Origin: Escherichia coli
Lineage (GTDB): Bacteria; Pseudomonadota; Gammaproteobacteria; Enterobacterales; Enterobacteriaceae
Strand: one strand, 5' to 3'
Length of the DNA stretch: 64,000 nucleotides
NCBI RefSeq assembly: GCF_029227855.1
Contig: NZ_CP074356.1
Both the position numbers and the translations under genes were made by a program. Positions 1-13,091 of this stretch are shown here, piece by piece (positions within the stretch are counted from its first letter, which is position 1; each line of letters starts with the position of its first letter). The notes beneath the pieces are model-generated. The model worked only from the letters and a program-made list of their open reading frames with translations, was not told where the DNA came from and made no database searches.

Positions 1-102
1 GACACTGCGCTGGATCGTCTGATGCAGGGTGCACCGGCACCGCTGGCTGCAGGTAACCCGGCATCTGATGCCGTTAACGATTTGCTGAACACACCAGTGT
101 AA
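1..102 (+). CDS. C-terminal end of head scaffolding/protease gene (lambda C/Nu3-like); 5' end lies outside the window
   Basis: Open frame from window start to TAA at 100-102; lies immediately upstream of D as in the lambda head operon; only 33 codons visible. Confidence 0.55.
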   Translation, partial: DTALDRLMQGAPAPLAAGNPASDAVNDLLNTPV

Positions 103-111
103 GGGATGTTT

Positions 112-444
112 ATGACGAGCAAAGAAACCTTTACCCATTACCAGCCGCTGGGCAACAGTGACCCGGCTCATACCGCAACCGCGCCAGGCGGATTGAGTGC
201 GAAAGCGCCTGCAATGACCCCGCTGATGCTGGACACCTCCACCCGTAAGCTGGTTGCGTGGGATGGCACCACCGACGGTGCTGCTGTCGGCATTCTTGCT
301 GTTGCTGCTGACCAGACCAGCACCACGCTGACGTTCTACAAGTCCGGCACGTTCCGTTATGAGGATGTGCTCTGGCCGGAGGCTGCCAGCGACGAGACGA
401 AAAAACGGACCGCGTTTGCCGGAACGGCAATCAGCATCGTTTAA
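112..444 (+). CDS. D: head decoration protein D (lambda gpD)
   Basis: ORF 106-444; product from ATG 112 begins [11 protein letters not shown] and matches lambda gpD over its length (110 aa). Confidence 0.93.
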
Positions 445-499
445 CCTTACCCTTCATCACTAAAGGCCGCCTGTGCGGCTTTTTTTACGGGATTTTTTT

Positions 500-775
500 A
501 TGTCGATGTACACAACCGCCCAGCTGCTGGCGGCAAATGAGCAGAAATTTAAGTTTGATCCGCTGTTTCTGCGTCTCTTTTTCCGTGAGAGCTATCCCTT
601 CACCACGGAGAAAGTCTATCTCTCACAAATTCCGGGGCTGGTAAACATGGCGCTGTACGTTTCGCCGATTGTTTCCGGTGAGGTTATCCGCTCCCGTGGC
701 GGCTCCACCTCTGAATTTACGCCGGGATATGTCAAGCCGAAGCACTTAGCATGGCTTTCTGAGGCTTTCGTGTAG
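500..775 (+). pseudogene. E: major capsid protein E, 5' fragment (first ~82 codons), interrupted at 735-744 by an inserted element
   Basis: From ATG 500 the product MSMYTTAQLLAANEQKF...GYVKPKH is lambda gpE N-terminus; after the core at 735-744 the frame continues into unrelated sequence and stops at 775. Confidence 0.92.
735..744. repeat. attL core / target-site direct repeat (AGCCGAAGCA)
   Basis: Identical 10-mer recurs at 11864-11873; prophage E sequence resumes exactly after the right copy. Confidence 0.85.
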
Positions 776-872
776 CTGCTGGTTTTTACACTTAATCTTT
801 TGATAATAAAGAATAAGTTTATCTGGCGCTTTCACTGAATTTTCCTCGTTATCTGTGTGTTGCAATCATCTC

Positions 873-892
873 TGTATTGCAGCTTGTATTGC
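873..892 (+). promoter_or_regulatory. tandem TGTATTGC motifs (TGTATTGCAGCTTGTATTGC), putative integrase arm-type binding sites overlapping the int 5' region
   Basis: Near-identical 20-mer (TGTATTGCAGCATGTATTGC) recurs at 11769-11788 just inside the other att core. Confidence 0.5.
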
Positions 893-907
893 TTTTTGGG
901 GCTAAAA

Positions 908-2143
908 ATGGCTGGCGAGAACAAACTGAGCGACAAAGCGCTTAAAGGATATCTGGGGAAACCCAGAGAAAAGCAGATCACCATTGCTGATGGAAAGGGG
1001 CTTTCTATTCGTGTGAGTACTAAAGGGGCTGTGAGCTTTGTTTTCTTCTACAGGTTAGCAGGTGGCCGGGCTGCTCCGGTCTGGCTAACGTTGGGTAAAT
1101 ATCCTGATATGTCACTCAAACAGGCAAGGGAAAAGCGCGACGAGTGCCGTGGTTGGTTGGCTGACAAACGTGATCCGCGTATCCAGATTAAGATTCAGGC
1201 TGAAGAACGCTTAAAGCCGGTCACAGTGGAGGATGCACTAAATTACTGGTATGAAAATTACTGTAAGGTGCGTCGTAAAACTCATGCTGTAACGCTTGGC
1301 AGATTTCGAAAGCATATCTTTCCCTATATCGGTCATTTGCCCGTAAATGACACTCACCTATATGAATAGCTGGACTGTTTTGACCGAATTAAACGTAATG
1401 CACCAGTTATGGCGGCGTATGTTTTTTCTGACACTAAATTAGCTCTTCGTTTTTGTCGGGTACGCCAGTACGCGACGTGTGATGCTTTAAAGGATTTGCG
1501 CATGAGTGATGTGGGGCAGATTGCAGGTAAGCGGGATCGGGTTCTGGATGAGGTCGAACTCGGCCAGCTCTGGAAGGCAATTTTTGTCGAGCCTGATTTA
1601 AAACTAATGTCTGAATACACGCGAAAAATGTTTGTGCTTTGTACAGTATTTGGATGTCGAATGAGTGAAGCCCGATTATCAGAATGGAGCGAATGGGATC
1701 TCGAAAGTTGGGTTTGGACTGTGCCAAAAGATCACTCAAAAACTGGTGTTGAAATCGTCAGACCAGTACCTGAAATTCTACGACAGTGGGTAACGGATGT
1801 TCACGAAGAGACAAAACATACTGGTTATGTGCTGGGAAGTCTGCGAATTAGAGAAAGCGTAAGCAAGATTGGGGGGAAAATCGGTAAACGTTTGGGCCAT
1901 GAAAAACAATGGTCACTACACGACCTTAGAAGAACGCTATCTACTCATCTAAGTGATCTCGGTGTTGAATTTTATGTAGTAGAACAACTGTTAGGCCATG
2001 CGCTACCTGGCGTGGCAGGTGTTTACAACCGGAGTAAGTTTATGGCTAAAAAACTGGATGCTCTGGAACTCTGGACTACATATCTCAATAGCATCGCAGC
2101 TGCTGATTCAAAAGTGACAATCCTCAAACAAAAGGCTGGTTAG
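908..2143 (+). pseudogene. int: P4-type tyrosine integrase interrupted by an in-frame amber codon (TAG at 1367-1369)
   Basis: ORFs 857-1369 and 1409-2143 are in the same frame, separated by one TAG; N-terminal arm-binding region (MAGENKLSDKALKGYLGK...) and C-terminal catalytic region with HDLRRT, LLGHA and VYNRS (Tyr) motifs. Confidence 0.85.
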
Positions 2144-2144
2144 C

Positions 2145-2375
2145 ATGAAAAAAATGGCAATTGTTGATAAAAAGGGTCTGGAGTACATTCCTAACATTGA
2201 CCGAATGATCCGTGAGAAAGAATGTCGGGAGCTAACTACTCTTGCGAACAGCACACGCTGGAAGCTGGAGAAGGAAGGAAAATTTCCTAAGCGGATCAAG
2301 ATTGGTTCCACTGCTGTTGCATATCGTCTTTCAGAAGTGCAGGCATGGATTCGAGGTGAGTGGGAAACAACTTAA
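2145..2375 (+). CDS. alpA: AlpA-family HTH transcriptional regulator / excisionase-like protein
   Basis: 76-aa product with AlpA-type HTH (RIKIGSTAVAYRLSEVQAWI); immediately downstream of int as in P4-like and PICI elements. Confidence 0.8.
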   Translation: MKKMAIVDKKGLEYIPNIDRMIREKECRELTTLANSTRWKLEKEGKFPKRIKIGSTAVAYRLSEVQAWIRGEWETT

Positions 2376-2382
2376 CTATTAG

Positions 2383-3213
2383 GTGGGCATTGTGGCTATA
2401 TTTCATTATACAGATCTTTTTGGTTTGAAAGGTATATTAGACTCTAATTCTTTATGGGCTACAAACATATATTTCTTAAATGATAAAGAGGAGTCTAACC
2501 ATGGATGTGAATGCTTTCGAAATACAATTAAAATAGTTGATGACAATATCATTCCAAAAGATAAGAAAACTATTTTGCTCAAGTCTCTTGACATGTATGA
2601 GAAAGGGAGGTTACAAAAAGAAAAAGGGATTGATAAACATGTTTATAGCATCTCTTTTTGTAAGGAAAACGATAAGTTAAGTCAGTGGAGAGGTTACGGA
2701 AATAAACAGGGTGTTTGCATTGAGTTTGATGCGGATGAACTTGTGAGCTTTTCTCAAAATATTTATTTAAATTGTGTTGCACATGATGTTATATATTCAA
2801 ATAATAACGATATTACTAAGATGAGTAAGGAGTTGGGAGAGTTTTTTTCTTGTAATGGTATTAATATTAAAGAAATGAATGATCATTTTGTAACAATGGT
2901 CTCTACGTATCAATTTATATCTAAATACATCCCATTTTTTAAACATCCTAGTTTTATCGAAGAGAATGAATTTAGATTGGTATTTACTCCGTGGATGCAA
3001 ATGCCAGATGTGCACTTCAGAATAAATAATAATGGGATCATCCCTTATATCATCATTGATAATAAAGATAATAGAAAGTTACCAATTAAAAGCATTACAA
3101 TTGGCCCGACAAACGATTATGATTTCATTGAGGCTGGTATAAAAATGTTCTTGGATTCAAGAGGATTTAGTTCTGTGGAAATTAAATCCTCATCAATTCC
3201 ATTCAGGGGGTAA
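2383..3213 (+). CDS. uncharacterised 276-aa protein, AT-rich accessory gene (candidate defence/abortive-infection cargo)
   Basis: Long ORF with GTG start at 2383 (alternative GTG at 2392 has AGGTGG 5 nt upstream); visibly AT-rich relative to int and primase; no confident family match by eye. Confidence 0.6.
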   Translation: MGIVAIFHYTDLFGLKGILDSNSLWATNIYFLNDKEESNHGCECFRNTIKIVDDNIIPKDKKTILLKSLDMYEKGRLQKEKGIDKHVYSISFCKENDKLSQWRGYGNKQGVCIEFDADELVSFSQNIYLNCVAHDVIYSNNNDITKMSKELGEFFSCNGINIKEMNDHFVTMVSTYQFISKYIPFFKHPSFIEENEFRLVFTPWMQMPDVHFRINNNGIIPYIIIDNKDNRKLPIKSITIGPTNDYDFIEAGIKMFLDSRGFSSVEIKSSSIPFRG

Positions 3214-3344
3214 GGATTAACACTTTTAATCTATGATATTATAAAAATGGTGGATAAAGGCGACCAGAATTGGTCGCCAATGTGAGTATATAGTTAGCCT
3301 TAATCAGAATACGAGGTTATCGCCTGATAGGCAATGTGAACAGT

Positions 3345-3701
3345 TCAATATTTAGGTGGTTCAACAAGAGCGTTTATCATTGCTCTCAAATTATCGCGAA
3401 CACTTATCCAAGTCTGTTCTGCTCGTTCTAACTCATCAGTGTACAACTTTAATGTTTTATCTATGCCATATGTGGCTATTAAATTTATAGCTTCTTGTAA
3501 TTTTTCAGGATTATTCCTTCTTGGGGGAGTGAATATACCACGGATTTTTCCGGTAATTAAAGCTTTACGGTGTCTACATAGAATACCTTTACTTCCTGCT
3601 GGACAATTACAAGTCATGATTAGCGAGCCAGAATCGTTTGATACAGTGACTATGTATACATCCAAACTACTGCTACTTGTTGCGAAGAATTCGTATTTCA
3701 T
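3345..3701 (-). CDS. SWIM-type zinc-finger protein (118 aa)
   Basis: CxC...CxH motif (CNCPAGSKGILCRH); AAGGAG Shine-Dalgarno about 8 nt upstream of the ATG; downstream of the Arc-like gene on the same strand. Confidence 0.6.
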   Translation of the reverse strand: MKYEFFATSSSSLDVYIVTVSNDSGSLIMTCNCPAGSKGILCRHRKALITGKIRGIFTPPRRNNPEKLQEAINLIATYGIDKTLKLYTDELERAEQTWISVRDNLRAMINALVEPPKY

Positions 3702-3728
3702 GTGTTAGCTCCTTGACTTCAATTATTC

Positions 3729-3920
3729 TTATCCTTTTGGTTCAATACCGCGCCGTAGCAGCTCTTTGCGCCCTAATTCTTTAAGCCAGTTGGCTAGGCT
3801 TATGCCGTCGCTCTGCGCTTCTTTGTCGAATTGCTCTTTTAGCTCTGGAGAAATTCGCATTCTGAATTGTGGAGATTGCCCATCACCCTTAGGACTTTTA
3901 TCGCGTTTGATCGTTGACAA
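3729..3920 (-). CDS. Arc/MetJ-type ribbon-helix-helix DNA-binding protein (candidate satellite repressor)
   Basis: C-terminal part ...PQFRMRISPELKEQFDKEAQSDGISLANWLKELGRKEL resembles Arc repressor; start uncertain (TTG at 3920 with AGGTGG upstream, or ATG further in; ORF track gives 3729-4043); divergent from the + strand operon that starts at 4060. Confidence 0.55.
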   Translation of the reverse strand: MSTIKRDKSPKGDGQSPQFRMRISPELKEQFDKEAQSDGISLANWLKELGRKELLRRGIEPKG

Positions 3921-4059
3921 GTGACCACCTATTGAATTAGCCTTTTCATTGTTAGGTGACCACCTTAACACGGGGGCACTTAAAAAAGCAAAGCCCGAAG
4001 GTGCTGGGAACACCAACGGGCTTCTAACCACCAACGATAGCAACAGTATCGAGGTAGCT

Positions 4060-4263
4060 ATGAGAAATCATACCACACACCCGCAAGGGCGGGACCCGCA
4101 CAACCTGAATAAATACATCTGGCGTTTTATCGCCTTGAGTACGGCACAACCGCGCATGATTACCATCGAGGCCATCAGCGAACAGGAAGCCCGCCAGCAA
4201 TCCCCAACTGGCTGCGTGATGGTATTCGCCGCCCGTATTCGTCAGGAGGTGTGCCGTGCTTAA
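4060..4263 (+). CDS. hypothetical small protein (first gene of operon leading to primase)
   Basis: ATG 4060 preceded by GAGG; in frame with ORF 3949-4263. Confidence 0.45.
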   Translation: MRNHTTHPQGRDPHNLNKYIWRFIALSTAQPRMITIEAISEQEARQQSPTGCVMVFAARIRQEVCRA

Positions 4264-4441
4264 AACCTTCCGTGTATTTGCCCGAGCTGTTAACCCACTG
4301 GGCCACACAATTGGTATCACTCAGAACGTGAAGGCTGTTAATGTTCAGACGGCTATTGCTGCGGTGAGAAGCGAATCATCAGAATATGGCTTATCACAAG
4401 TCATTATTTCAGCAGTGTATGAATTAAAAGAGGTGCATTAA
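4256..4441 (+). CDS. hypothetical small protein (61 aa)
   Basis: ORF whose start overlaps the upstream stop (translational coupling). Confidence 0.4.
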   Translation: MLKTFRVFARAVNPLGHTIGITQNVKAVNVQTAIAAVRSESSEYGLSQVIISAVYELKEVH

Positions 4442-4632
4442 TGCAGGAAATCACATTACACGAAGCCGCTGAACGTGCGCACCAGACAGAAATTATTTGC
4501 CGCCTTCTTGAGGTATACCCGAACAAAATTACAGATGCTGATATATCCGCGCTGGCGAGCCTACTGGCGCGCCTTTCGGGAAGTGTCGCTAGTTTCCTGA
4601 TTGAGGAAGAAAGTAAGCTGGTGGGGGATTAA
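4441..4632 (+). CDS. hypothetical small protein (63 aa)
   Basis: ATG overlaps upstream stop (TAATG); co-directional operon. Confidence 0.45.
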   Translation: MQEITLHEAAERAHQTEIICRLLEVYPNKITDADISALASLLARLSGSVASFLIEEESKLVGD

Positions 4633-4854
4633 ATGAATACAGAACGGGAAGTCTTTTTTAAATTGTTAGCATGTGCAGAAAGTTCATTAACTTTAAATAA
4701 TTCAGCAAAAGCAATATTAAATATGTGGCTTGATTGCATAAATGACAATGAAGATGCAAATATTGCTTATGGCCTGTTGTCACTTATTGATGAATCAGCA
4801 GAAAAACTCAATGACGCAATAAATAGTGCCCTGCTATCAAATAAGTCGAGTTAA
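4633..4854 (+). CDS. hypothetical small protein (73 aa), AT-rich
   Basis: ORF directly abutting the upstream stop. Confidence 0.4.
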   Translation: MNTEREVFFKLLACAESSLTLNNSAKAILNMWLDCINDNEDANIAYGLLSLIDESAEKLNDAINSALLSNKSS

Positions 4855-4871
4855 GTCGAGGAATAAATAAT

Positions 4872-5171
4872 ATGGAAATGAAAAATTCTGGCTTTATTGC
4901 CAGCGGCCCCGCTCGGCCTGAATTTATGAACGGCGATATTTACCGCGATAAATACGGCGGCACGGTAACGATTAAAGGCGTGGCAGAACGGCGCATCACT
5001 TACCGCCGTGAGGGGTATAGCTATGACTGCGTGATGCCTGTTTATCAGTTCCGGCGTGATTTTTCCCTGGTATATGCCGCACCCCGCAGTAAGCCCATCA
5101 GCAGGGAAAAAGCGCGGGGAAACATCCAGAAAATGAAAAGCATGATTAACGCATTCAGGGGCAAAAAATGA
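4872..5171 (+). CDS. hypothetical protein (99 aa)
   Basis: ORF whose stop overlaps the primase start. Confidence 0.45.
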   Translation: MEMKNSGFIASGPARPEFMNGDIYRDKYGGTVTIKGVAERRITYRREGYSYDCVMPVYQFRRDFSLVYAAPRSKPISREKARGNIQKMKSMINAFRGKK

Positions 5172-6919
5172 AACTGGCACCGAACTTAAAAAAACAGCCA
5201 CGCGACAGACTGACAGAGGTAATCATCTTTGCAGGTAGTGATGCGTGGAGCCATGCGAAAGAGTGGCGGGAATGGGCGGGTAAACATATTGCCGCCGACG
5301 ATGTGCCGCCTGTCGTGCTGGCTGATGAGCAACTGAAAAATATCACCGATTACCGGATCATTGATGAAGATCGTCAGTGTGTGCGTGTTTACCGCGCAGG
5401 ACATATCACAGAGCACAGCATGACGCAGATTGTTACGTTACTGGCTGTGGCTGGAGTGAAGACCGTACACGAATACGCGGGGATTACTGACACCAGCCCA
5501 GTGGATTTATCCGAGCAGTTGCCGCGACTCAAAGAGGAATGCGAGCGTGGGGAAAGTCTGGTGCTTAATCTTCCGACGAAGCAAAAGGCGCAACTTTCAC
5601 AGATGGCAGACAGTGAACGTGCACAACTACTTGCCGATCGCTTTGATGGTGTGTGTGTTCATGCAGAAAGTGAAATCGTCCACGTATGGCGCGGCGGGGT
5701 ATGGTGTCCGGTCAGCACAATGGAGCTGAGCCGCGAAATGGTGGCGATCTATTCAGAGCACAGGGCCACGTTCAGCAAACGTGTAATCAATAACGCCGTG
5801 GAAGCGTTAAAAGTTATTGCCGACCCCATGGGGGAGCCGTCCGGTGATTTGCTACCGTTCACTAATGGTGTGCTTAACCTGAAAACGGGGGAATTTTCTC
5901 CGCACTCGCCGGAGCACTGGAGCACCACGCACAATGGCATTGAGTACACGCCACCAGTAGCAGGGGAAAACATCCGCGATAATGCGCCAAATTTCCATAA
6001 ATGGCTTGAACATGCTGCAAGAAAAGACCCGCGCAAGATGATGCGTATATGTGCCGCGTTATACATGATTATGGCGAACCGCTACGACTGGCAGATGTTC
6101 ATTGAGGCCACCGGAGACGGGGGAAGCGGTAAGAGTACATTTACCCATATTGCCACCCTGCTTGCTGGCAAACAGAACACCGTAAGCGCGGAGATGACAT
6201 CACTCGATGATGCAGGAGGGCGCGCGCAGGTTGTCGGGAGTCGTCTTATCGTCCTTGCCGATCAGCCGAAATATACGGGGGAAGGCACGGGCATCAAGAA
6301 AATCACGGGAGGCGATCCCGTTGAAATTAACCCGAAATATGAGAAGCGATTCACGACGATAATAAGGGCGGTGGTACTGGCAACCAATAACGACCCGATG
6401 ATCTTTACCGAACGGGCCGGAGGTGTGTCACGCCGTCGGGTGATTTTCCGGTTCGACAACATTGTAAGGGAGGACGAAAAAGACAAGGAATTACCGGAAA
6501 AGATAGCGGCAGAAATCCCCGTAATTATCCGCCGCTTGCTGGCTAATTTTGCTGACCCTGAAAAGGCACGGGCTTTATTACTGGAACAGCGTGACGGTGA
6601 TGAAGCTCTGGCAATAAAGCAGCAAACGGATCCGGTTGTTGAGCTTTGCGCGGCGCTGGAGTTTCTGGAGGAAGCTCGTGGGCTAATGATGGGCGGTGGT
6701 GGTGACACCGTGAAGTACACGACCAGAAACAGCCTTTACCGTGTCTATATGGCCTTCATGGCATACACAGGAAAGGGGAAATGTTTGAGCGTGAATGAGT
6801 TCGGAAAGGCTATGAGGTCAGCGGCGAAAGTTTACGGATATGAATATATTACGCGAAAAGTTAAGGGAGTCACGCAGACCAACGCAACGACTACTGATGA
6901 TTGCGATGCGTTTTTATAA
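5168..6919 (+). CDS. P4-alpha-type replication primase/helicase (phage/plasmid primase, P4 family C-terminal domain)
   Basis: 583-aa product with Walker A GDGGSGKST and surrounding blocks typical of P4-family primase C-terminal domains; followed by iterons. Confidence 0.85.
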   Translation: MKLAPNLKKQPRDRLTEVIIFAGSDAWSHAKEWREWAGKHIAADDVPPVVLADEQLKNITDYRIIDEDRQCVRVYRAGHITEHSMTQIVTLLAVAGVKTVHEYAGITDTSPVDLSEQLPRLKEECERGESLVLNLPTKQKAQLSQMADSERAQLLADRFDGVCVHAESEIVHVWRGGVWCPVSTMELSREMVAIYSEHRATFSKRVINNAVEALKVIADPMGEPSGDLLPFTNGVLNLKTGEFSPHSPEHWSTTHNGIEYTPPVAGENIRDNAPNFHKWLEHAARKDPRKMMRICAALYMIMANRYDWQMFIEATGDGGSGKSTFTHIATLLAGKQNTVSAEMTSLDDAGGRAQVVGSRLIVLADQPKYTGEGTGIKKITGGDPVEINPKYEKRFTTIIRAVVLATNNDPMIFTERAGGVSRRRVIFRFDNIVREDEKDKELPEKIAAEIPVIIRRLLANFADPEKARALLLEQRDGDEALAIKQQTDPVVELCAALEFLEEARGLMMGGGGDTVKYTTRNSLYRVYMAFMAYTGKGKCLSVNEFGKAMRSAAKVYGYEYITRKVKGVTQTNATTTDDCDAFL

Positions 6920-6933
6920 AAAATGGCAATGGT

Positions 6934-7161
6934 TATCTACCTTGTCTACCTGACTGAAAGAAAATACTTTTATTTCAATGTATTAATGCAGGTAGATAAC
7001 TATTTTTCACTGTCTACCTGTTATCTACCTTATCTACCCATTTTTGTAGACAGGTAAGGAGACGGGTAGAGATGAGGTAGACAGCTATTTGGGGCTGTCT
7101 ACCTCCCTGAAACCCGCGCCATTACTGGCCTGATAACTAATCAGGTAGACAAGGTAGACAA
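6934..7161. repeat. replication-origin iterons (about 12 copies of T[GT]TCTACC / GGTAGA[CT]A in both orientations)
   Basis: Dense cluster of the 8-9-bp motif in the non-coding stretch immediately downstream of the primase gene. Confidence 0.75.
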
Positions 7162-7208
7162 GGTGGTGGTGCACAAAAAACTTTTTAAACGAGGGGGTAA
7201 AAATAAAA

Positions 7209-7466
7209 ATGCACACTTCAGGAAAACTGAACAAACATATAAAGCCACATTACCGCGCCCTTGATATGGCTGAACACTGGCTAAGGGTGGCGATTAAGGC
7301 AATAGACCGCAACGCCGGGGAAGGATACGCGAAAGCACATCCCGAACTGATAAGCGCATTCATGACAACGGCGGCTGCAAACTTTGCCACGCTGACCGAA
7401 CGGGAGATTGCTGAAGCGGAGGAAGTGACAACAATCAATATTAAGTCCGGAGAGCAGGCAGCATGA
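7209..7466 (+). CDS. hypothetical protein (85 aa)
   Basis: ORF whose stop overlaps the ssb start (ATGA). Confidence 0.45.
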   Translation: MHTSGKLNKHIKPHYRALDMAEHWLRVAIKAIDRNAGEGYAKAHPELISAFMTTAAANFATLTEREIAEAEEVTTINIKSGEQAA

Positions 7467-7912
7467 CGGCGCAAATATCAGTTTACGGGCGGTTGGTGGA
7501 CGACCCGCAGACAAAACAGACCAGCAAGGGCACCCCCATGACGCTGGCGCGTATGGCGGTATCACTGCCCTGCAGTCAGTCGGATGACGGTCTGGCGACG
7601 TTGTGGTTATCTGTCCTGGCGTTTGGCAGACAAGCCGACGCGCTGGCAAAGCATCACAAAGGCGAACTCCTGAGCGTGGCGGGTAACATGCAGATGAGCC
7701 AGTGGACTGGACAGAACGGCGAAACGCGGCAGGGCTGGCAGGTTATCGCAGACAGCGTAATCAGTGCGCGATCGGTGCGACCGGGCGGCAAAAAAGGCCA
7801 ACAGGGGCAGGCTACTGACGCACTGAACAGAGCAAAACAACAGGCAGATCAGCAAGGAAGCCAGCCACCAGAGGGAGATAATGAGCAATGGGGAGATGAT
7901 ATCCCGTTTTAA
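7463..7912 (+). CDS. ssb: single-stranded DNA-binding protein (SSB)
   Basis: 149-aa product with OB-fold-like N-terminal region and acidic C-terminal tail ending DDIPF. Confidence 0.75.
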   Translation: MTAQISVYGRLVDDPQTKQTSKGTPMTLARMAVSLPCSQSDDGLATLWLSVLAFGRQADALAKHHKGELLSVAGNMQMSQWTGQNGETRQGWQVIADSVISARSVRPGGKKGQQGQATDALNRAKQQADQQGSQPPEGDNEQWGDDIPF

Positions 7913-8128
7913 ATATTGCCAATAAAAAAAGCCGGAAAAAATAAATTTTCCGGCATGCTACATAAATCCCGACCAAAGGGAGTGAAGATATTAACACTAA
8001 TTGTCCGCACTGAAGTTGTCACACCAAAACTTTATACAACATTGCACTCGGTTGCATGTGTTCGCATGACAAATATCGGTGATAGCATATATCCACAATT
8101 ATTTTTAATGAATGCAAAGAGGATGCGT

Positions 8129-9169
8129 ATGGTTGATTTATATTCGCCTACTCAGCTTGTACAGGTAGTTAATGCTGTAGATGTACAAAAACAACTAAAT
8201 GCGTTGTTTACCAGTTTGTTTTTTACTCGCTCGGTAATGTTTGAATCGCGCGATATTATTCTTGATACAATCGACGATCCAAATATCCCAATTGCAGCGT
8301 TTTGTTCTCCTATGGTGGGTAGTAAAGTTTCACGTGACGAAGGGTACGAATCAAAAACAATTCGTCCAGGCTATATGAAGCCGAAAAGCAGCATTGATCC
8401 AAATAAGTTAGCTGTGCGCCCTGCTGGTGTGTCACCTGAGCAATACAATGCTTTTGGGGCGCGTAATATTAAAGTTAAACAGGCGATTGTAAATCAGGCT
8501 AAAGCTATTCGTGCACGTATTGAATGGCTTGCTGTTCAGGCAATCACAACGGGGAAAAATATCATTGAGGGCGATGGTATTGAACGTTATGAGCTGGACT
8601 GGAATATAAAACCACAAAATATCATCACTCAGTCTGGCGGTACTGAGTGGTCAGGTAAGGATAAAGAAACTTTTGATCCAAATGATGATATTGAGAGCTA
8701 CGCAGAATTTAGTGAGGGCGTCACTAATATCATCATTATGGGTGGTAATGTATGGAAGAAATACCGTTCATTCAGAGCGATAAAAGAGGCTTTGGATACC
8801 CGTCGTGGTTCTAATTCCGAACTGGAAACGGCCCTTAAAGACCTTGGTGATTCGGTGAGTTTTAAAGGGTATATGGGCGATGTTGCGATTGTTGTTTACA
8901 GCGGGCGTTATACCGACGAGGACGGAACAGAAAAACATTTCCTTGATCCTGATTTGATGGTGCTTGGCAATACGGCTCTTCAGGGGATTGTCGCCTATGG
9001 CGGTATTCAGGATCCGGAGCTAATCCGAATGGGGCTGACTAAAGCCGAACTTGCACCGAAAAACTATATTGTGCCTGGTGATCCGGCTATTGAATATGTG
9101 CAGACACATTCAGCACCACAGCCAATACCGGCCCGCATCAATCGTTTTGTTACCGTTCGCATTGGCTAA
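8129..9169 (+). CDS. major capsid protein paralogue (lambda gpE-like) encoded by the satellite
   Basis: ORF 7916-9169; from ATG 8129 (GAGG upstream) the product aligns collinearly with the prophage's own E, sharing blocks ITQSGGTEWS, DTRRGS.SELETA.KDLG and GDVAIVVYSG. Confidence 0.85.
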   Translation: MVDLYSPTQLVQVVNAVDVQKQLNALFTSLFFTRSVMFESRDIILDTIDDPNIPIAAFCSPMVGSKVSRDEGYESKTIRPGYMKPKSSIDPNKLAVRPAGVSPEQYNAFGARNIKVKQAIVNQAKAIRARIEWLAVQAITTGKNIIEGDGIERYELDWNIKPQNIITQSGGTEWSGKDKETFDPNDDIESYAEFSEGVTNIIIMGGNVWKKYRSFRAIKEALDTRRGSNSELETALKDLGDSVSFKGYMGDVAIVVYSGRYTDEDGTEKHFLDPDLMVLGNTALQGIVAYGGIQDPELIRMGLTKAELAPKNYIVPGDPAIEYVQTHSAPQPIPARINRFVTVRIG

Positions 9170-9178
9170 GGGGGAGCA

Positions 9179-9520
9179 ATGGCTACTCATTACACTGAAC
9201 TCATGGCTGGCACTGAAGCACTGGTGACTACGCTGGGGATATTTTCAGCTAATAAAGGGGTAATTCCTGCATTTACGCCACTGATGCAGGAAGATGCAAC
9301 AGGTGCACTGGTGGTATGGGATGGTTCGAGCGTAGGTAAAGCGGTTTATGTTTCCGCTGTACAAATCGACACCGCGAAAAAAACACAGGCTCAGGTCTAT
9401 AAGACAGGTGTCTTAAATGTTGATGCTCTGAACTGGCCTGAGTCTGTTAAAGAACTGTCAGTAAAGGTTGCAGCGTTTGTTGGCTCAGGTATTTCTGTTC
9501 AGCCGCTGGCTCGTGTGTAA
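9179..9520 (+). CDS. head decoration protein paralogue (lambda gpD-like) encoded by the satellite
   Basis: 113-aa product alignable with prophage D at 112-444 (LVVWDGSSVGKAV versus [13 protein letters not shown]; shared C-terminal G.AISV region). Confidence 0.75.
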   Translation: MATHYTELMAGTEALVTTLGIFSANKGVIPAFTPLMQEDATGALVVWDGSSVGKAVYVSAVQIDTAKKTQAQVYKTGVLNVDALNWPESVKELSVKVAAFVGSGISVQPLARV

Positions 9521-9531
9521 AGGGGGATACA

Positions 9532-9915
9532 ATGCAGAATGATTACAATGACCTTAAGCCAATTGCCGAAATGATGTACCCGAATCAAGCTGTAGAGGAA
9601 TTAAAAGCTATCGCTGACAAAATGTGTTTAAGCGAGCGCCTTGTTGATATGAATCAGGTGATGGAAATTACAACCCTGAGTCGTCGTACACTGCTAAACC
9701 TTGAGGCTAGTGGAGAGTTCCCGGAGCGTGTGCAGGTTACGGAAGGGCGTAAGGCCTGGTATTTAAGTGAAGTGATCGACTGGATAAATAATATTCCTCG
9801 CGCTTCTGAATATTGCCGCGTACCTGTCCCAAAAAAGCCAGATGCGGCGCTATGCCTCAAGATTGAGCGTGTACGCCGCAATGCACGGGATGGTCGCTAT
9901 AAGCTGATTGGTTGA
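9532..9915 (+). CDS. AlpA-family HTH protein adjacent to cos (candidate packaging-redirection or regulatory protein)
   Basis: 127-aa product with AlpA-type HTH (ITTLSRRTLLNLEASGEFPERVQV) and a basic C-terminal extension; immediately upstream of the cos site. Confidence 0.55.
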   Translation: MQNDYNDLKPIAEMMYPNQAVEELKAIADKMCLSERLVDMNQVMEITTLSRRTLLNLEASGEFPERVQVTEGRKAWYLSEVIDWINNIPRASEYCRVPVPKKPDAALCLKIERVRRNARDGRYKLIG

Positions 9916-9923
9916 TGAAATTA

Positions 9924-9950
9924 GGACCCGCTCTGGCTGGCGGGTCCTTT
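9924..9950 (+). terminator. hairpin terminator-like element after gene 9532-9915
   Basis: GGACCCG...CGGGTCC stem followed by TTT. Confidence 0.4.
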
Positions 9951-10145
9951 CCGGCGATCCAGAACGTTACGGGGCGTCAGGCGCGCAGTTTTTCGCTATT
10001 TGTGAAAATTTTCCTGTTTAAGGCGTTTCCGTTCTTCTTCGCCGTAACTTAATGTTTTTATTAAAAACACCCCCTAAAAAGAAAGGAAACGACAGGTGCT
10101 AAAAACAGGCTTTTTGGCCTCTGTCGTTTCCTTTCTCTGGTTTTG
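9940..10145. other. lambda-type cos site (cosN-equivalent at about 9972-9983; cosB R3-I1-R2-R1 to about 10140)
   Basis: Stretch TTTTCGCTATTTGTGAAAATTTTCCTGTTTAAGGCGTTTCCGTTCTTCTTCG...AAAGAAAGGAAACGACAGGTGCT...GGCTTTTTGGCCTCTGTCGTTTCCTTTCTCTG closely matches the left end of phage lambda (cosB) from memory; cosN 12-mer reads GGGCGTCAGGCG instead of GGGCGGCGACCT; no Nu1 gene follows. Confidence 0.8.
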
Positions 10146-10513
10146 TTGCCATCCGTCGCGGTCTATCACCAGAAAAAATCTTATCCCTGAGTTGAATCAG
10201 GCCCTATTCAGAAGCGGCCAATAACGCGCCGCTAGCTTCACTTCATAGTTATGGCCTACTTCTGCGCCATTGCAATTGCTTTATGCGCCTTGATGGTGGA
10301 ATATAGAGCAAGCAGTTTGCGAATAACAAAGTTTCATATGTTTTTTGCTGTGTGGCTAGACAACTTTACAGCAGAGTTTTGTGTCAGTTCTTTATGTGTG
10401 CAAGCAAGCTTGAGGGGGAATTACTTCTGGCTGTATCTTTGCTTAAGAACAGCAATAATTTAATCATAAGGAAATGTATATAAGCCTGATTAAATTTCAG
10501 GCTTATTGAAATG

Positions 10514-11656
10514 TTAACTCCTTATTAGAGAGTAAATTCCATCCTCTTTAAGGAAGTCTATTACTTCAAAGAATGAGATAAAGAATTCCCAAGAACCAAA
10601 AGCATATGCATGAATTTCGTAAGGTGCAAAATGGAATCTAAATCCATCACTATTTATTGTGAACGAGTCTAAGTTACTATCCATGATACCCGTTGCAAAC
10701 GTACTAATGTCGTCCTCACTTGGTTTTTCACCAGTTTTCTCCCAAAATTCACGAGCTGATTCAGAGATTATTTTTTGTTTTATCTTATTAATCGCTTCTT
10801 GCTCTTTCCCTTCGGTAAATACATCCCATAAACTAAATTTGTATGCGTAGTCATCCTTGGTTATTACGAAATTACTAGTTTCAAAATGACTGTTAGGGTG
10901 TGCTGCTCCCGCACCATACCAATGTACGGAATGAAGGATGCTCATGACATTTTCGTTACAGTATGAGATGTTATAACTTTCATTATAGGAACTAGTGTAA
11001 GTGTGTTTATATTCTTCATCCCAATATGGTGTTCCTGGCCATAGTGATGTGCGTTCAGAAAAAATATGTAAAGCCGCTTTTCCTGAAAAGTAATCACTAA
11101 TGAGTTTTGCTGATTTCGGTAATGTATGGCTTTCAATTCTTGGATATGCTATTTCAATTTCATGCCCTGGGATCTTGTTATATTCTTCCTTGAAAACCTC
11201 GCTGCTAAAGTTAAATGGCCCATAAGTGATACCTTGAGATATTTCAAGTTTTTGTTGCGATGCTGCTAATCTTAAAGATCTAGATAAAATGTCCCAACCA
11301 TCATTTCTCTTAAAATCAATGAATTGGAGCTTGCTTGATATGTAGGCGGGTACTTCGCAATCATCAATAAGTAATGGTATCACGAACACATCATCTGGTT
11401 TGTAATACTTTAGTTTATCAATGGCGTCATTTATTTCGCGGCGAATATAACCATTTTTCTGAGTGCTCACTTTGCTAAGGATAAGGATTATCAAGTTTGA
11501 ATTAGCGAAGTTTTTTTGGATTTCATAATCCCAGTTTACGCCAGCGGGTATATCTTTTACATCCATCCAAGGGGAATATCCTCCACTTTTTAGCCTTTCA
11601 TAGATTTCTTCAGTTATCGTTTCATCTTCTTTTGCATGAGCAAGAAAAATTTTCAT
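10514..11656 (-). CDS. TIR-domain protein with C-terminal domain of unknown function (candidate anti-phage defence gene)
   Basis: 380-aa product; N-terminal about 135 aa looks like a TIR domain (MKIFLAHAKEDE...ILILSKVS...REINDAIDKL); C-terminal about 240 aa unassigned (contains HWYGAGAAHP motif); AT-rich; last gene before attR. Confidence 0.7.
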   Translation of the reverse strand: MKIFLAHAKEDETITEEIYERLKSGGYSPWMDVKDIPAGVNWDYEIQKNFANSNLIILILSKVSTQKNGYIRREINDAIDKLKYYKPDDVFVIPLLIDDCEVPAYISSKLQFIDFKRNDGWDILSRSLRLAASQQKLEISQGITYGPFNFSSEVFKEEYNKIPGHEIEIAYPRIESHTLPKSAKLISDYFSGKAALHIFSERTSLWPGTPYWDEEYKHTYTSSYNESYNISYCNENVMSILHSVHWYGAGAAHPNSHFETSNFVITKDDYAYKFSLWDVFTEGKEQEAINKIKQKIISESAREFWEKTGEKPSEDDISTFATGIMDSNLDSFTINSDGFRFHFAPYEIHAYAFGSWEFFISFFEVIDFLKEDGIYSLIRS

Positions 11657-11768
11657 TGAATATTCCTTTATAATTTAACTAATTAAGTGAAGGAGGCTTT
11701 ACTTGGCTGTGTTAGAAAAAATTCGGTTTGTTTTTTGTACGATGCCAAGAAGGCTTTTCCCTAACCAT

Positions 11769-11788
11769 GTATTGCAGCATGTATTGCT
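11769..11788 (+). promoter_or_regulatory. tandem TGTATTGC motifs (putative integrase arm-type sites, right arm)
   Basis: TGTATTGCAGCATGTATTGC, 19/20 identical to 873-892. Confidence 0.5.
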
Positions 11789-11863
11789 ACGTAATTCTGC
11801 ACCCTCTCATTTATAAAATAAATCTCTGTTAAATCAAGTATCTTTTTTCTATTTGACTCATGT

Positions 11864-11873
11864 AGCCGAAGCA
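11864..11873. repeat. attR core / target-site direct repeat (AGCCGAAGCA)
   Basis: Identical to 735-744; E sequence (HEVNPQMTL...) resumes from this point. Confidence 0.85.
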
Positions 11874-12699
11874 TGAGGTGAATCCGCAGATGACCCTGCG
11901 TCGCCTGCCGGATGAAGATCCGCAGAATCTGGCGGACCCGGCTTACCGCCGCCGTCGCATCATTATGCAGAACATGCGTGACGAAGAGCTGGCCATTGCC
12001 CAGGTCGAAGAGATGCAGGCAGTTTCTGCCGTGCTTAAGGGCAAATACACCATGACCGGTGAAGCCTTCGATCCGGTTGAGGTGGATATGGGCCGCAGTG
12101 AGGCGAATAACATCACGCAGTCCGGCGGCACGGAGTGGAGCAAGCGTGACAAGTCCACGTATGACCCGACCGACGATATCGAAGCCTACGCGCTGAACGC
12201 CAGCGGAGTGGTGAATATCATCGTGTTTGATCCGAAAGGCTGGGCGCTGTTCCGTTCCTTCAAAGCCGTCAAGGAGAAGCTGGATACTCGTCGCGGCTCT
12301 CATTCCGAGCTGGAGACAGCGGTGAAAGACCTGGGCAAAGCGGTGTCCTACAAGGGGATGTATGGCGATGTGGCCATCGTCGTGTATTCCGGACAGTACG
12401 TGGAAAACGGCGTCAAAAAGAACTTCCTGCCGGACAACACGATGGTGCTGGGGAACACTCAGGCACGCGGTCTGCGCACCTATGGCTGCATTCAGGATGC
12501 GGACGCACAGCGCGAAGGCATTAACTCCTCTGCCCGTTACCCGAAAAACTGGGTGACCACCGGCGATCCGGCGCGTGAGTTCACCATGATTCAGTCAGCA
12601 CCGCTGATGCTGCTGGCTGACCCTGATGAGTTCGTGTCCGTACAACTGGCGCAATCGTGGCCCTTCGGGGCCATTTTCTCTCTGTGGAGGAGTCCATGA
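11864..12699 (+). pseudogene. E: major capsid protein E, 3' fragment (about 260 codons), with the lambda stop position read as CAA
   Basis: Product ...EVNPQMTLRRLPDEDPQ...DEFVSVQLA is lambda gpE from about residue 83; 500-744 plus 11874-12654 equals 1026 nt, the lambda E length; frame runs on 15 codons to TGA at 12697-12699. Confidence 0.9.
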
Positions 12700-13091
12700 C
12701 GAAAGATGAACTGATTGTCCGTCTCCGGTCGCTGGGTGAGCAACTGAACCGTGATGTCAGCCTGACGGGGACGAAAGAAGAACTGGCGCTCCGTGTGGCA
12801 GAGCTGGAAGAGGAGCTTGATGACACGGATGACGCTGCCGGTCAGGATACCCCTCTCAGACCGGAAAATGCGCTGACCGGACATGAAAATGAGGTGGTAT
12901 CAGAGCAGCCGGATACCATGATTGATACGGCTGCTCTGGTCACGGTCGTGGCACTGGTGACGCTGCATACTGATGCACTTCACGCCACGCGGGATGAACC
13001 TGTGGCATTTGTGCTGCCGGGAACGGCGTTTCGTGTCTCTGTCGGTGTGGCAGCCGAAATGACAGAACGTGGCCTGGCCAGAATGCAATAA
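12696..13091 (+). CDS. FI: DNA-packaging/head assembly protein FI
   Basis: Product MTKDELIVRLRSLGEQLNRD... matches lambda gpFI. Confidence 0.9.
   Translation: MTKDELIVRLRSLGEQLNRDVSLTGTKEELALRVAELEEELDDTDDAAGQDTPLRPENALTGHENEVVSEQPDTMIDTAALVTVVALVTLHTDALHATRDEPVAFVLPGTAFRVSVGVAAEMTERGLARMQ

Follow-up and report, generated by a model that had tools for sequence, protein, structure and literature searches.

A diverged capsid and decoration gene pair in a satellite embedded in the capsid gene of a lambda-like Escherichia coli prophage

What does a phage satellite gain from shell genes of its own when it sits inside the shell gene of its helper? The question is raised by a 64-kb stretch of Escherichia coli DNA (the window, meaning the whole stretch analysed), in which an 11.1-kb satellite element (745-11873) lies within capsid gene E of a lambda-like prophage and carries homologues of both E and the decoration gene D, here called E' and D'. 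A preliminary description had held that the element possesses a second, diverged E-type and D-type pair while splitting the helper copy of E, and that account stands, the pair being intact. It adds nothing to the published description, in which the arrangement is already known. What is added here is the purifying selection on the pair, its satellite-only clade, its reversed gene order and its occurrence at sites other than E.

The satellite and its helper prophage

As the preliminary description had recognised, helper E is disrupted by the element. The break follows codon 82 and coincides with a direct repeat of 10 bp, AGCCGAAGCA, found within the 64-kb window only at the two borders of the element (Table 1). 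With E split at a 10-bp att repeat, as in helper-embedded PICIs, and a helper-type cos unaccompanied by terminase, the element is a helper-embedded PICI of the 11capE type at the published site E:Phage_cap_E:80 (PMC10111431), and its attL junction was found in 172 of 5426 complete E. coli genomes. The organisation is that of a Gram-negative PICI of 10-20 kb, with int and alpA, an accessory and immunity zone, a primase with a downstream ori, and a late zone, in the order int-alpA-accessory-icd-primase-ori-SSB-E'-D'-alpA2-cos-cargo. The position of the putative ori agrees with that of the PICI ori described earlier (PMC6092414). P4-like immunity RNAs (C4/isrK) gave no Rfam match at the gathering threshold in 1-13000, and neither did any other Rfam family; these RNAs occur in "several" helper-embedded PICIs and hence are not strictly defining (PMC10111431). 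Apart from E' and D', the ORFs of the element serve integration, replication, regulation or cargo, and neither the ORF list nor a PHROG profile search gave a portal, protease/scaffold, terminase or head-tail connector among them. The cargo at the 3' hotspot varies from copy to copy. A search for exact or near-exact lambda cosN gave no match, and the sequence was read as a cos with an altered cosN: the 12-mer at 9972-9983 is GGGCGTCAGGCG rather than GGGCGGCGACCT, with 5 of 12 positions different.

Table 1. Features of the satellite and of the flanking helper genes (window coordinates)
Feature	Coordinates	Strand	Basis or remark
Helper head decoration gene D, 110 aa	112..444	+	RefSeq "head decoration protein" in equivalent prophages
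Helper capsid gene E, 5' fragment, codons 1-82	500..744	+	rebuilt E alignment
attL core AGCCGAAGCA	735-744	+	final 10 bp of E 5' fragment
Tyrosine integrase, nonsense-inactivated	908..2143	+	in-frame stop in codon 154
alpA (excisionase/regulator)	2145..2375	+	PHROG 2790/66; RefSeq annotation
DUF2971 protein, variable accessory zone	2383..3213	+	weak PADLOC match (PDC-S31, 1.3e-4)
SWIM zinc-finger protein, accessory	3345..3701	-	ORF and annotation
Icd-like cell-division inhibitor gene, P4-like immunity region	4060..4263	+	RefSeq annotation of identical copy L001, offset 5256
DUF4222 protein	4872..5171	+	profile match and annotation
Primase/replicase (D5-type, DUF5906)	5168..6919	+	PHROG 864, 2.9e-161
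Putative replication origin	6930..7165	.	many direct and inverted iterons TGTCTACCT / AGGTAGACA, adjoining the 3' side of the primase gene
Small conserved protein (phrog_1231)	7209..7466	+	PHROG
Single-stranded DNA-binding protein	7463..7912	+	PHROG 44, 1.9e-37
E', major-capsid-protein homologue, 346 aa, Phage_cap_E	8129..9169	+	BLASTP, Pfam, PHROG and PDB matches
D', head-decoration homologue, 113 aa, HDPD	9179..9520	+	BLASTP, Pfam, PHROG and PDB matches
Second AlpA-family HTH protein (alpA2)	9532..9915	+	PHROG 2790, 3.2e-49; PDB 8C3T AlpA, 2.2e-9
Lambda-type cos: cosQ, cosN, cosB R3-R2-R1	9930..10150	+	alignment with helper and lambda cosQ/cosB
TIR-domain protein, cargo	10514..11656	-	TIR models, 2e-17; variable 3' hotspot
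attR core AGCCGAAGCA	11864-11873	+	repeat search
Helper capsid gene E, 3' fragment	11874..12699	+	codons 83-341 end at 12651

Two lesions distinguish the present copy. Codon 154 of the integrase gene (1367-1369) is TAG here, whereas it is TGG, and the gene open, in locus L001 and in 33/33 IMG/VR copies. The stop codon of helper E at 12652-12654 is replaced by CAA, which adds 15 residues; TAA is kept there in 24/24 other composites as well as in L001 and L002. Rebuilt from its two fragments, helper E differs from lambda E at 3 of 341 residues. The nonsense codon in the integrase makes excision of the element and rebuilding of helper E unlikely, and in the present genome this copy probably cannot excise nor helper E be restored. 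With helper E split, E' is the only complete shell gene in the window.

Homology, selection and distribution of E' and D'

The proposed kinship of the two pairs is borne out by formal alignment. E' aligns end to end and collinearly with helper E rebuilt from 500-744 and 11874-12651 (147 of 349 identities, 42%; 12 gap positions; BLASTP E=6e-86), and D' aligns with helper D (40 of 106 identities, 38%; E=1e-17). Residues 12-343 of E' cover positions 4-327 of the 329-position Pfam model Phage_cap_E (PF03864, 1.2e-41), and D' matches HDPD (PF02924, 5.3e-15); the PHROG profiles are major head protein (PHROG 29, 2e-89) for E' and head decoration (1.3e-25) for D'. Among solved structures, E' matches 3BQW (2.7e-121) and, over residues 12-345, lambda gpE (7VI9, 4.7e-77), whereas D' is nearer phage 21 SHP (1TD0, 4.7e-16) than lambda gpD (7VII/1C5E, 1e-11). 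The full-length matches of E' to solved structures settle its fold, and these comparisons taken together show E' and D' to be, by homology, genuine full-length members of the lambda gpE and gpD/SHP families. Conservation along E' is uneven, with the N-terminal ~130 residues 13-30% identical to E and a central block 63-73%. The N-terminal part of HK97-fold proteins usually touches the scaffold and neighbouring capsomers, and E', diverged in this part, may not fit the helper scaffold and portal.

E' starts at ATG 8129 behind an AGAGGA ribosome-binding site, a start shared by the identical RefSeq copies; the 7916 start of the gene region in the preliminary description is just the first in-frame TTG of a mechanically called ORF. 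D' begins 9 nt past E' with its own ribosome-binding site (GGGGGAG), and alpA2 begins 11 nt past D'. The ribosome-binding sites are strong, and E', D' and alpA2 probably make up one operon, with alpA2 last. The unit lies directly upstream of the satellite cos. A promoter scan gave no sigma-70-like promoter upstream of E' on the plus strand, and a hairpin at 7931-7954 scores as a terminator on the minus strand only. That alpA2 might be Rpp was considered and rejected, its PDB match being AlpA (8C3T) and not RppC; the 137-aa counterpart of alpA2 in a CFT073-type island (L005) had no PDB match.

Both genes evolve under constraint. The dN/dS of E' is 0.08 at a dS of 1.28 (window versus L003) and 0.04-0.05 in closer pairs, and that of D' is 0.06-0.10. 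The preliminary description had allowed that similarity might prove insignificant or the genes inactive pseudogenes; the similarity is significant, and E' is open in 79/79 and D' in 78/78 copies among IMG/VR loci, in a scan with a single-protein query that recovered only copies 97-100% identical and so serves to count intact copies rather than to find distant relatives. The substitution rates thus show the pair to be under strong purifying selection, as expected of genes that are selectively maintained.

The pair also has a history of its own. E' and E have reached saturation at synonymous sites, and the G+C content of the capsid module is 0.40-0.48 versus 0.57-0.58 for the helper late genes. 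The closest phage to E' among 50,697 records is at 42%. Full-length homologues of E' (n=104) fall into 45 with at least 50% identity and others with at most 42%, and 16 fixed differences are specific to the E' clade. As judged from these comparisons, E' and D' form an old, satellite-only lineage separate from phage E and are no recent copy of the present helper. Among the 45 is an E::E' chimera (P0043). The single chimeric ORF, on metagenome scaffold_2787 (L093) of ENA sample ERZ28600228, would, if real, suggest that parts of E and E' are interchangeable.

The window-type pair is found in ~7% of complete E. coli genomes, and the E'/D' pair is conserved across Escherichia, Salmonella, Serratia, Edwardsiella, Lelliottia and Cedecea; the contexts checked in other genera were PICIs in 4/4 cases. 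E'-D' modules with 95-98% nucleotide identity occur in PICIs at chromosomal cspD/clpS, where nothing is interrupted, and near-identical modules are also present in PICIs at chromosomal roxA/phoQ. More distant versions reside in PICIs at chromosomal fis sites, in a portal-gene-embedded PICI whose helper has D and E intact, and in a Salmonella PICI embedded in the tail-sheath gene of a P2-like prophage, the head system of which is unrelated. No P2-type cos was found in this last PICI; its cos, though divergent, looks lambda-like in architecture. The link drawn in the preliminary description between carriage of the pair and disruption of E is therefore unspecific.

Possible roles of the pair

We tentatively favor the view that E' and D' are the late-zone capsid module of an 11capE-like PICI, a shell and cement pair made late for full-size heads built on helper machinery. 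While the satellite is embedded, E' and D' could be produced by read-through of the helper late transcript, which is conceivable since all genes are co-oriented, and after excision they could come from the satellite's own AlpA-dependent transcription. The matched shell subunit and cement would then enter or build full-size lambda-type heads, borrowing the helper portal, protease/scaffold, terminase, head-completion proteins and tails. The gain for the satellite would be a supplementary source of shell protein, useful under certain conditions, neither a device for size redirection nor a specific spare for E. Proteins of the gpD type bind only expanded gpE lattices, and the presence of a co-diverged D' beside E' in every lineage suggests a lattice of this kind on the part of E'. 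The pair may have a structural role in full-size heads. In EcCICFT073, the closest studied relative, deletion of the capsid homologue c1499 or the decoration homologue c1500 left both lambda interference and transfer by a resident helper unchanged (PMC6092414), and c1499 showed no phenotype in its authors' hands (PMC6092414; PMC6893505), so any structural contribution would be dispensable under laboratory conditions.

It is less probable that E' and D' constitute a satellite-lineage shell that assembles on the helper portal and scaffold and that, in integrase-dead composites, E' permanently replaces the split E. If that is the case, such PICIs would be a minimal step from the classical type, which takes over entire heads, towards the capsid-forming type, and the prophage in integrase-dead composites would rely on the capsid gene of its parasite. 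An unlikely alternative, raised when these elements were described (PMC10111431), is that E' stands in for the split helper E as long as the satellite stays integrated, allowing heads to form before or without excision. E is split here, E' is co-oriented within the late operon and, with the integrase dead, is the sole complete shell gene in the window. Moreover, E is the most frequent site of helper-embedded PICIs, and 11capE was first found in a search for islands carrying a homologue of their target gene (PMC10111431). The distribution of the module argues otherwise: at cspD/clpS no gene is interrupted, and its occurrence at the fis, portal and sheath sites, with helper D and E intact in the portal case, indicates that the pair is not specifically a spare for a split E. 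A spare copy of E also leaves the carriage of D' unexplained, helper D being intact, and the helper E fragments are open in 28/28 and 24/24 composites with a normal stop, so that selection appears to maintain the restoration of E by excision.

We likewise consider it doubtful that the pair interferes with head assembly of the helper or other lambda-type phages, whether by poisoning it with non-productive mixed capsomers or by titrating the portal, scaffold or D-binding sites, thereby lowering helper yield or protecting the host. PICIs generally interfere with their helpers (PMC6092414). A conserved central block, a strongly diverged N-terminal third and clade-specific fixed differences are the pattern that might be expected of a subunit that docks in capsomers yet differs at lattice contacts. 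A poison has no obvious need for a matched decoration protein, though, and none of E', D', alpA2 and the small conserved protein matched a defence model in PADLOC. Deletion of c1499 or c1500 restored no lambda plaques on EcCICFT073 cells, although interference by Rpp could mask a second mechanism there. More remote still is the suggestion of the preliminary description that E', like Ccm, alters the triangulation number to give small heads fitting an 11-kb genome. The capsid homologue of satellite SaPIbov5 does redirect head size (PMC6893505), PmCI172, which likewise has a capsid homologue, makes small heads (PMC6092414), and by rough scaling only, a lambda-type shell would hold about one 11.1-kb copy at T=3 and about two at T=4. 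The analogy had already failed for the closest studied relative, since the DNA packaged by EcCICFT073 with lambda as helper is phage-sized, its deletions are without effect, and its authors excluded size redirection (PMC6092414; PMC6893505). A normal lambda head can accommodate four 11.1-kb copies, 44.5 kb in all, and a retained gpD-type cement would be expected of a full-size, fully filled lambda shell. Finally, the absence of a laboratory phenotype for c1499 and the decay of the present copy, with its integrase nonsense codon, might point to leftovers of late-gene capture that have lost their function. That reading is effectively refuted by the selection analysis (dN/dS 0.04-0.10 over dS up to 1.3), together with the uniformly intact copies and the retention of the pair across six genera.

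Strong purifying selection and a satellite-only clade sharpen the question of what E' and D' do without answering it. The naturally locked copy in the window, with its dead integrase and split E, offers a convenient natural test of head-building by E'.

Comparison with known systems

Among the closest known systems is Eco567.11capE, founding member of the helper-embedded PICIs (Tommasini, Mageeney and Williams 2023, PMC10111431). Like the window element, it is ~11 kb long, lies inside and co-oriented with a lambda-like E at E:Phage_cap_E:80, and has a 10-bp att identity block, an int-alpA-primase backbone, a helper-like cos with no terS and its own E-family capsid gene, which differs at the att-equivalent position. 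The match to 11capE (NRG857c) was made from the description in that paper and from the 172 genomes that share the junction. The window copy departs from 11capE in its int, interrupted by a nonsense codon, and in its helper E, which is devoid of its stop codon. Its cargo is a TIR protein, and other 11capE-type copies carry other genes.

No late genes are more frequent in Gram-negative PICIs than capsid and decoration homologues, which 21 of 29 reference islands possess (PMC10111431) and which were described in 2018 as c1499 and c1500 of EcCICFT073 (Fillol-Salom et al.; PMC6092414). In that island, which lambda and phi80 mobilise, both families recur with their order and position unchanged, past the replication module and before cos; identity between E' and the CFT073-type capsid homologue is 56%. 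Judged from its name and N-terminal sequence, 3BQW is probably the crystallised c1499 protein. EcCICFT073 is chromosomal with a non-lambda cosB that requires Rpp, whereas the window element is helper-embedded, has the R elements of a lambda-type cosB and carries an AlpA-type gene instead of Rpp after D'. A literature search on c1499, 3BQW, 11capE and satellite-encoded capsid proteins gave no functional work beyond the 2018, 2019 and 2023 publications.

The homology of E' and D' to lambda gpE and gpD and phage 21 SHP is collinear over the full length, and their Pfam families are shared. The satellite order E'-D' is the reverse of lambda D-E, and the pair, at 42% and 38% identity to lambda-type E and D, is unaccompanied by a portal, protease or scaffold. 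Ccm of SaPIbov5 is, like E', a capsid-protein homologue of a cos-packaged satellite. It is 23% identical to the capsid protein of its helper and causes small isometric heads to be made in place of prolate ones, and its deletion restores phage titres (PMC6893505). The studied relative of E' neither resizes heads nor restores phage titres on deletion, and Ccm has no decoration partner. The capsid-forming PICIs, to which the preliminary description had also likened the element, similarly encode a major capsid protein of their own. They encode a whole head module of terminase, portal, protease, capsid protein and head-tail connectors, and the analogy fails for the window element, which carries just the shell subunit and its cement.

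A second capsid and decoration gene pair

The window begins inside a late operon, that of a lambda-like prophage (the helper) whose gene E is split by a PICI, an insert of 11.1 kb bracketed by a 10-bp direct repeat, AGCCGAAGCA, at 735-744 and 11864-11873 that has no other copy in the 64 kb. The G+C content of the insert ranges from 0.30 to 0.54, versus 0.57-0.58 in the flanking helper late genes (1-500 and 12001-13000). When rebuilt, the helper E differs from that of lambda at only three residues, and the tail genes downstream appear intact as judged by ORF length.

The preliminary description stated that the element carries a second, diverged E/D-type pair while splitting the helper copy of E, and this is borne out, with similarity far beyond what chance would give. 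E' (346 aa) is collinear with the prophage E over its full length (42% identity, E = 6e-86), and D' (113 aa) aligns with the prophage D (38% identity, E = 1e-17). Profile searches agree, as E' passes the Pfam family Phage_cap_E (1.2e-41, with the whole model covered), D' passes HDPD (5.3e-15), and PHROG assigns the two to major head and head decoration, respectively. The matches of E' to solved structures include 3BQW, described as a 'putative capsid protein of prophage' (2.7e-121), and lambda gpE (4.7e-77), and those of D' include phage 21 SHP (4.7e-16) and lambda gpD (1e-11). The pair had been placed at 7916-9520, and its beginning needs correction. Position 7916 is just the upstream TTG of a mechanical ORF; the true start of E' is the ATG at 8129, which follows an AGAGGA ribosome-binding site and is the start given in RefSeq for identical copies.

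Features of the helper and the embedded element
Feature	Position	Strand	Remarks
Helper gene D	112-444
Helper gene E	starts 500, resumes 11874		broken after codon 82
Tyrosine integrase, P4-family	908-2143		first gene of insert, alpA next
Accessory genes DUF2971 (+) and SWIM zinc-finger (-)	2383-3701	+ / -	variable zone after alpA; faint PADLOC candidate matches only
Icd-like gene			after accessory genes
DUF4222 gene, then D5-type primase			upstream of probable origin
Iteron array	6930-7165		9-nt direct and inverted copies, TGTCTACCT / AGGTAGACA, dense; directly after primase gene
Small conserved gene and SSB			between probable origin and E'
E', D', then second AlpA-type gene	E' 8129-9169, D' 9179-9520		late zone, upstream of cos
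Lambda-type cos site	9930-10150		after second AlpA-type gene
TIR-domain protein	10514-11656	-	380 aa, TIR N-terminal; PADLOC TIR models 2e-17, ThsB-like 1e-4

The iteron array is the probable satellite replication origin. The stretch between cos and attR is variable, holding the TIR gene here and different genes in other copies of the element, and the TIR-domain protein is likely anti-phage cargo. The element cos aligns with the cosQ and cosB of the helper and of lambda, and its cosN 12-mer (9972-9983) is GGGCGTCAGGCG rather than GGGCGGCGACCT, with 5 of 12 positions differing. This allele is consistent across E-embedded copies, including those that share a genome with a helper of the lambda allele; in strain 10, whose E' and D' DNA is identical to that of the window, helper and embedded satellite have different cosN alleles. 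Another cosN allele, GGGCGGAAGGCG, is present in the real phages PhiR46_1 and YDC107_1 as well as in some PICIs, which brings the alleles in circulation among these PICIs to three.

Two lesions distinguish the window copy. Of the 411 integrase codons, number 154 (1367-1369) is the nonsense codon TAG, where the RefSeq-annotated copy L001 and 33 of 33 IMG/VR copies read TGG with the frame open, and the window element is probably unable to excise. The helper E stop at 12652-12654 reads CAA, not TAA, which adds 15 residues (to 12699) and is unique among 26 copies compared; TAA is present in all 24 other composites of helper and embedded PICI, in L001 and in the comparison locus L002. Given both lesions, the composite is probably locked and starting to decay.

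Ancestry and distribution of E' and D'

The frame is open in 79 of 79 full-length E' copies and 78 of 78 D' copies in 80 IMG/VR loci, and the Nei-Gojobori dN/dS values for E' are 0.08 (at dS = 1.28, window vs the comparison locus L003) and 0.04-0.05 for closer pairs, and those for D' are 0.06-0.10. By these sequence measures, E' and D' are functional genes. They are not recent copies of the helper genes, since E' and E are saturated with differences at synonymous sites, no identical run of at least 12 nt is common to the two, the G+C content of the module is unlike that of the helper genes, and the order E' then D' reverses the lambda order D then E.

The pair forms a satellite-only lineage. 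No phage protein more than 42% identical to E' was found among 50,697 records, and the 104 full-length homologues recovered from a search of 5.8 billion proteins fall into 45 at 50% identity or above (a set that includes the chimera P0043) and others at 42% or below, with a gap between. Divergence from phage E is uneven, with 13-30% identity in the N-terminal ~130 residues and 63-73% in a central block (alignment columns 166-285), and 16 positions are fixed differently between the two clades.

Three homologues are unusual. P0005 (463 aa) and P0080 (470 aa) combine Phage_cap_E and HDPD in one ORF as apparent capsid-decoration fusions, of which one belongs to the E' clade with 85% identity and the other has 42%; the fusions could be genuine, or frameshifts in sequencing could have produced them. 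P0043, an intact 342-aa ORF on an ENA metagenome scaffold (L093 2801-3829), begins with ~218 codons of lambda-type E and continues as E' to its end, with portal, protease and D upstream, D' and the second AlpA-type gene downstream, and an uninterrupted att core. The two parts join within the conserved LDTRRGS block, at ~8 nt of microhomology, and the sequence would fit either a true E/E' recombinant or an assembly chimera.

Of 5426 complete E. coli genomes, 394 have the E'-D' pair (coverage of at least 80%) and 172 have the attL junction between E fragment and element; in over half of the carriers, therefore, the module lies in another context. Such contexts include a location between cspD and clpS, in PICIs with 96% and 83% nucleotide identity, and a CFT073-type island between roxA and phoQ, where E' has 56% protein identity and a RepA helicase takes the place of the primase. 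In other genera, all four E'-clade genes placed in context lie in PICIs, each with a decoration gene next. The PICI of Serratia plymuthica adjoins fis, as does that of Lelliottia sp. (L091 10001-12752), a larger captured head module in which an S49 (gpC-like) protease gene follows E'-D'. The Lelliottia PICI also has a Phage_HCP-domain gene near alpA. In Edwardsiella tarda (L090 765-12681; E' 60% identical), a lambda-like prophage with intact D and E of its own has its portal gene split by the PICI, so that the carried capsid pair does not match the interrupted gene. In Salmonella enterica (L092 3526-15165; E' 58% identical), a PICI with the E'-D'-alpA module interrupts a P2-like prophage in its tail-sheath gene and is flanked by N- and C-terminal sheath fragments. 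The cos region of this PICI is lambda-like in appearance, not P2-like.

Possible roles and published relatives

The evidence favors a maintained accessory role for E' and D', probably a structural one. E' and D' may be a shell subunit and its matching cement protein, which would enter or build heads of full size on helper machinery. The main argument for this reading is that the sole known role of a gpD-type protein is to bind the expanded gpE-type lattice, and D' is kept beside E' in every lineage.

The preliminary description tied carriage of the pair to disruption of E. Since the module is also present at sites in the chromosome and in portal and sheath genes, it belongs to the PICI late zone in general and is not a device bound to insertion in E. 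The same sites weaken the published 'back-up copy' idea, in which E' is a spare for the interrupted E (PMC10111431), as do the helper E fragments of other composites, which are open with the normal TAA in 28 of 28 and 24 of 24 cases and thereby indicate that selection maintains restoration of E by excision. The pair had also been likened to capsid-forming PICIs and to Ccm of SaPIbov5. The former analogy fails because the element has no portal, protease, terminase or connector. Size redirection like that of Ccm is excluded for the nearest studied relative, EcCICFT073, which encodes the capsid homologue c1499 and the head decoration homologue c1500: the analogy was explicitly tested there and the size of the packaged DNA was that of the phage, deletion of c1499 or c1500 neither restored lambda plaques nor changed transfer, and the authors report no phenotype for c1499 (Fillol-Salom et al. 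2018, PMC6092414). A later review repeats the result (Dokland 2019, PMC6893505), and we found in the literature no later functional work on c1499, 3BQW, 11capE or satellite capsid proteins. E' and D' could alternatively act in interference, an effect that Rpp-type interference would mask in the published knock-outs.

Both the element and its capsid and decoration genes have been published before. Eco567.11capE is an 11-kb PICI that has a 10-bp att identity block and interrupts gene E in a lambda-like prophage, and 201 elements were assigned to the site E:Phage_cap_E:80 in the study that introduced the name helper-embedded PICI (Tommasini, Mageeney and Williams 2023, PMC10111431). The 14 helper-embedded sites described there are all in cognates of lambda late genes, and the tail-sheath site in S. 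enterica falls outside them. Eco567.11capE 'bears its own capsid gene', which belongs to the family of E and differs at the att-equivalent position (PMC10111431), and the window E' agrees with this description, having AAGCCGAAAAGCA where E has AAGCCGAAGCA.
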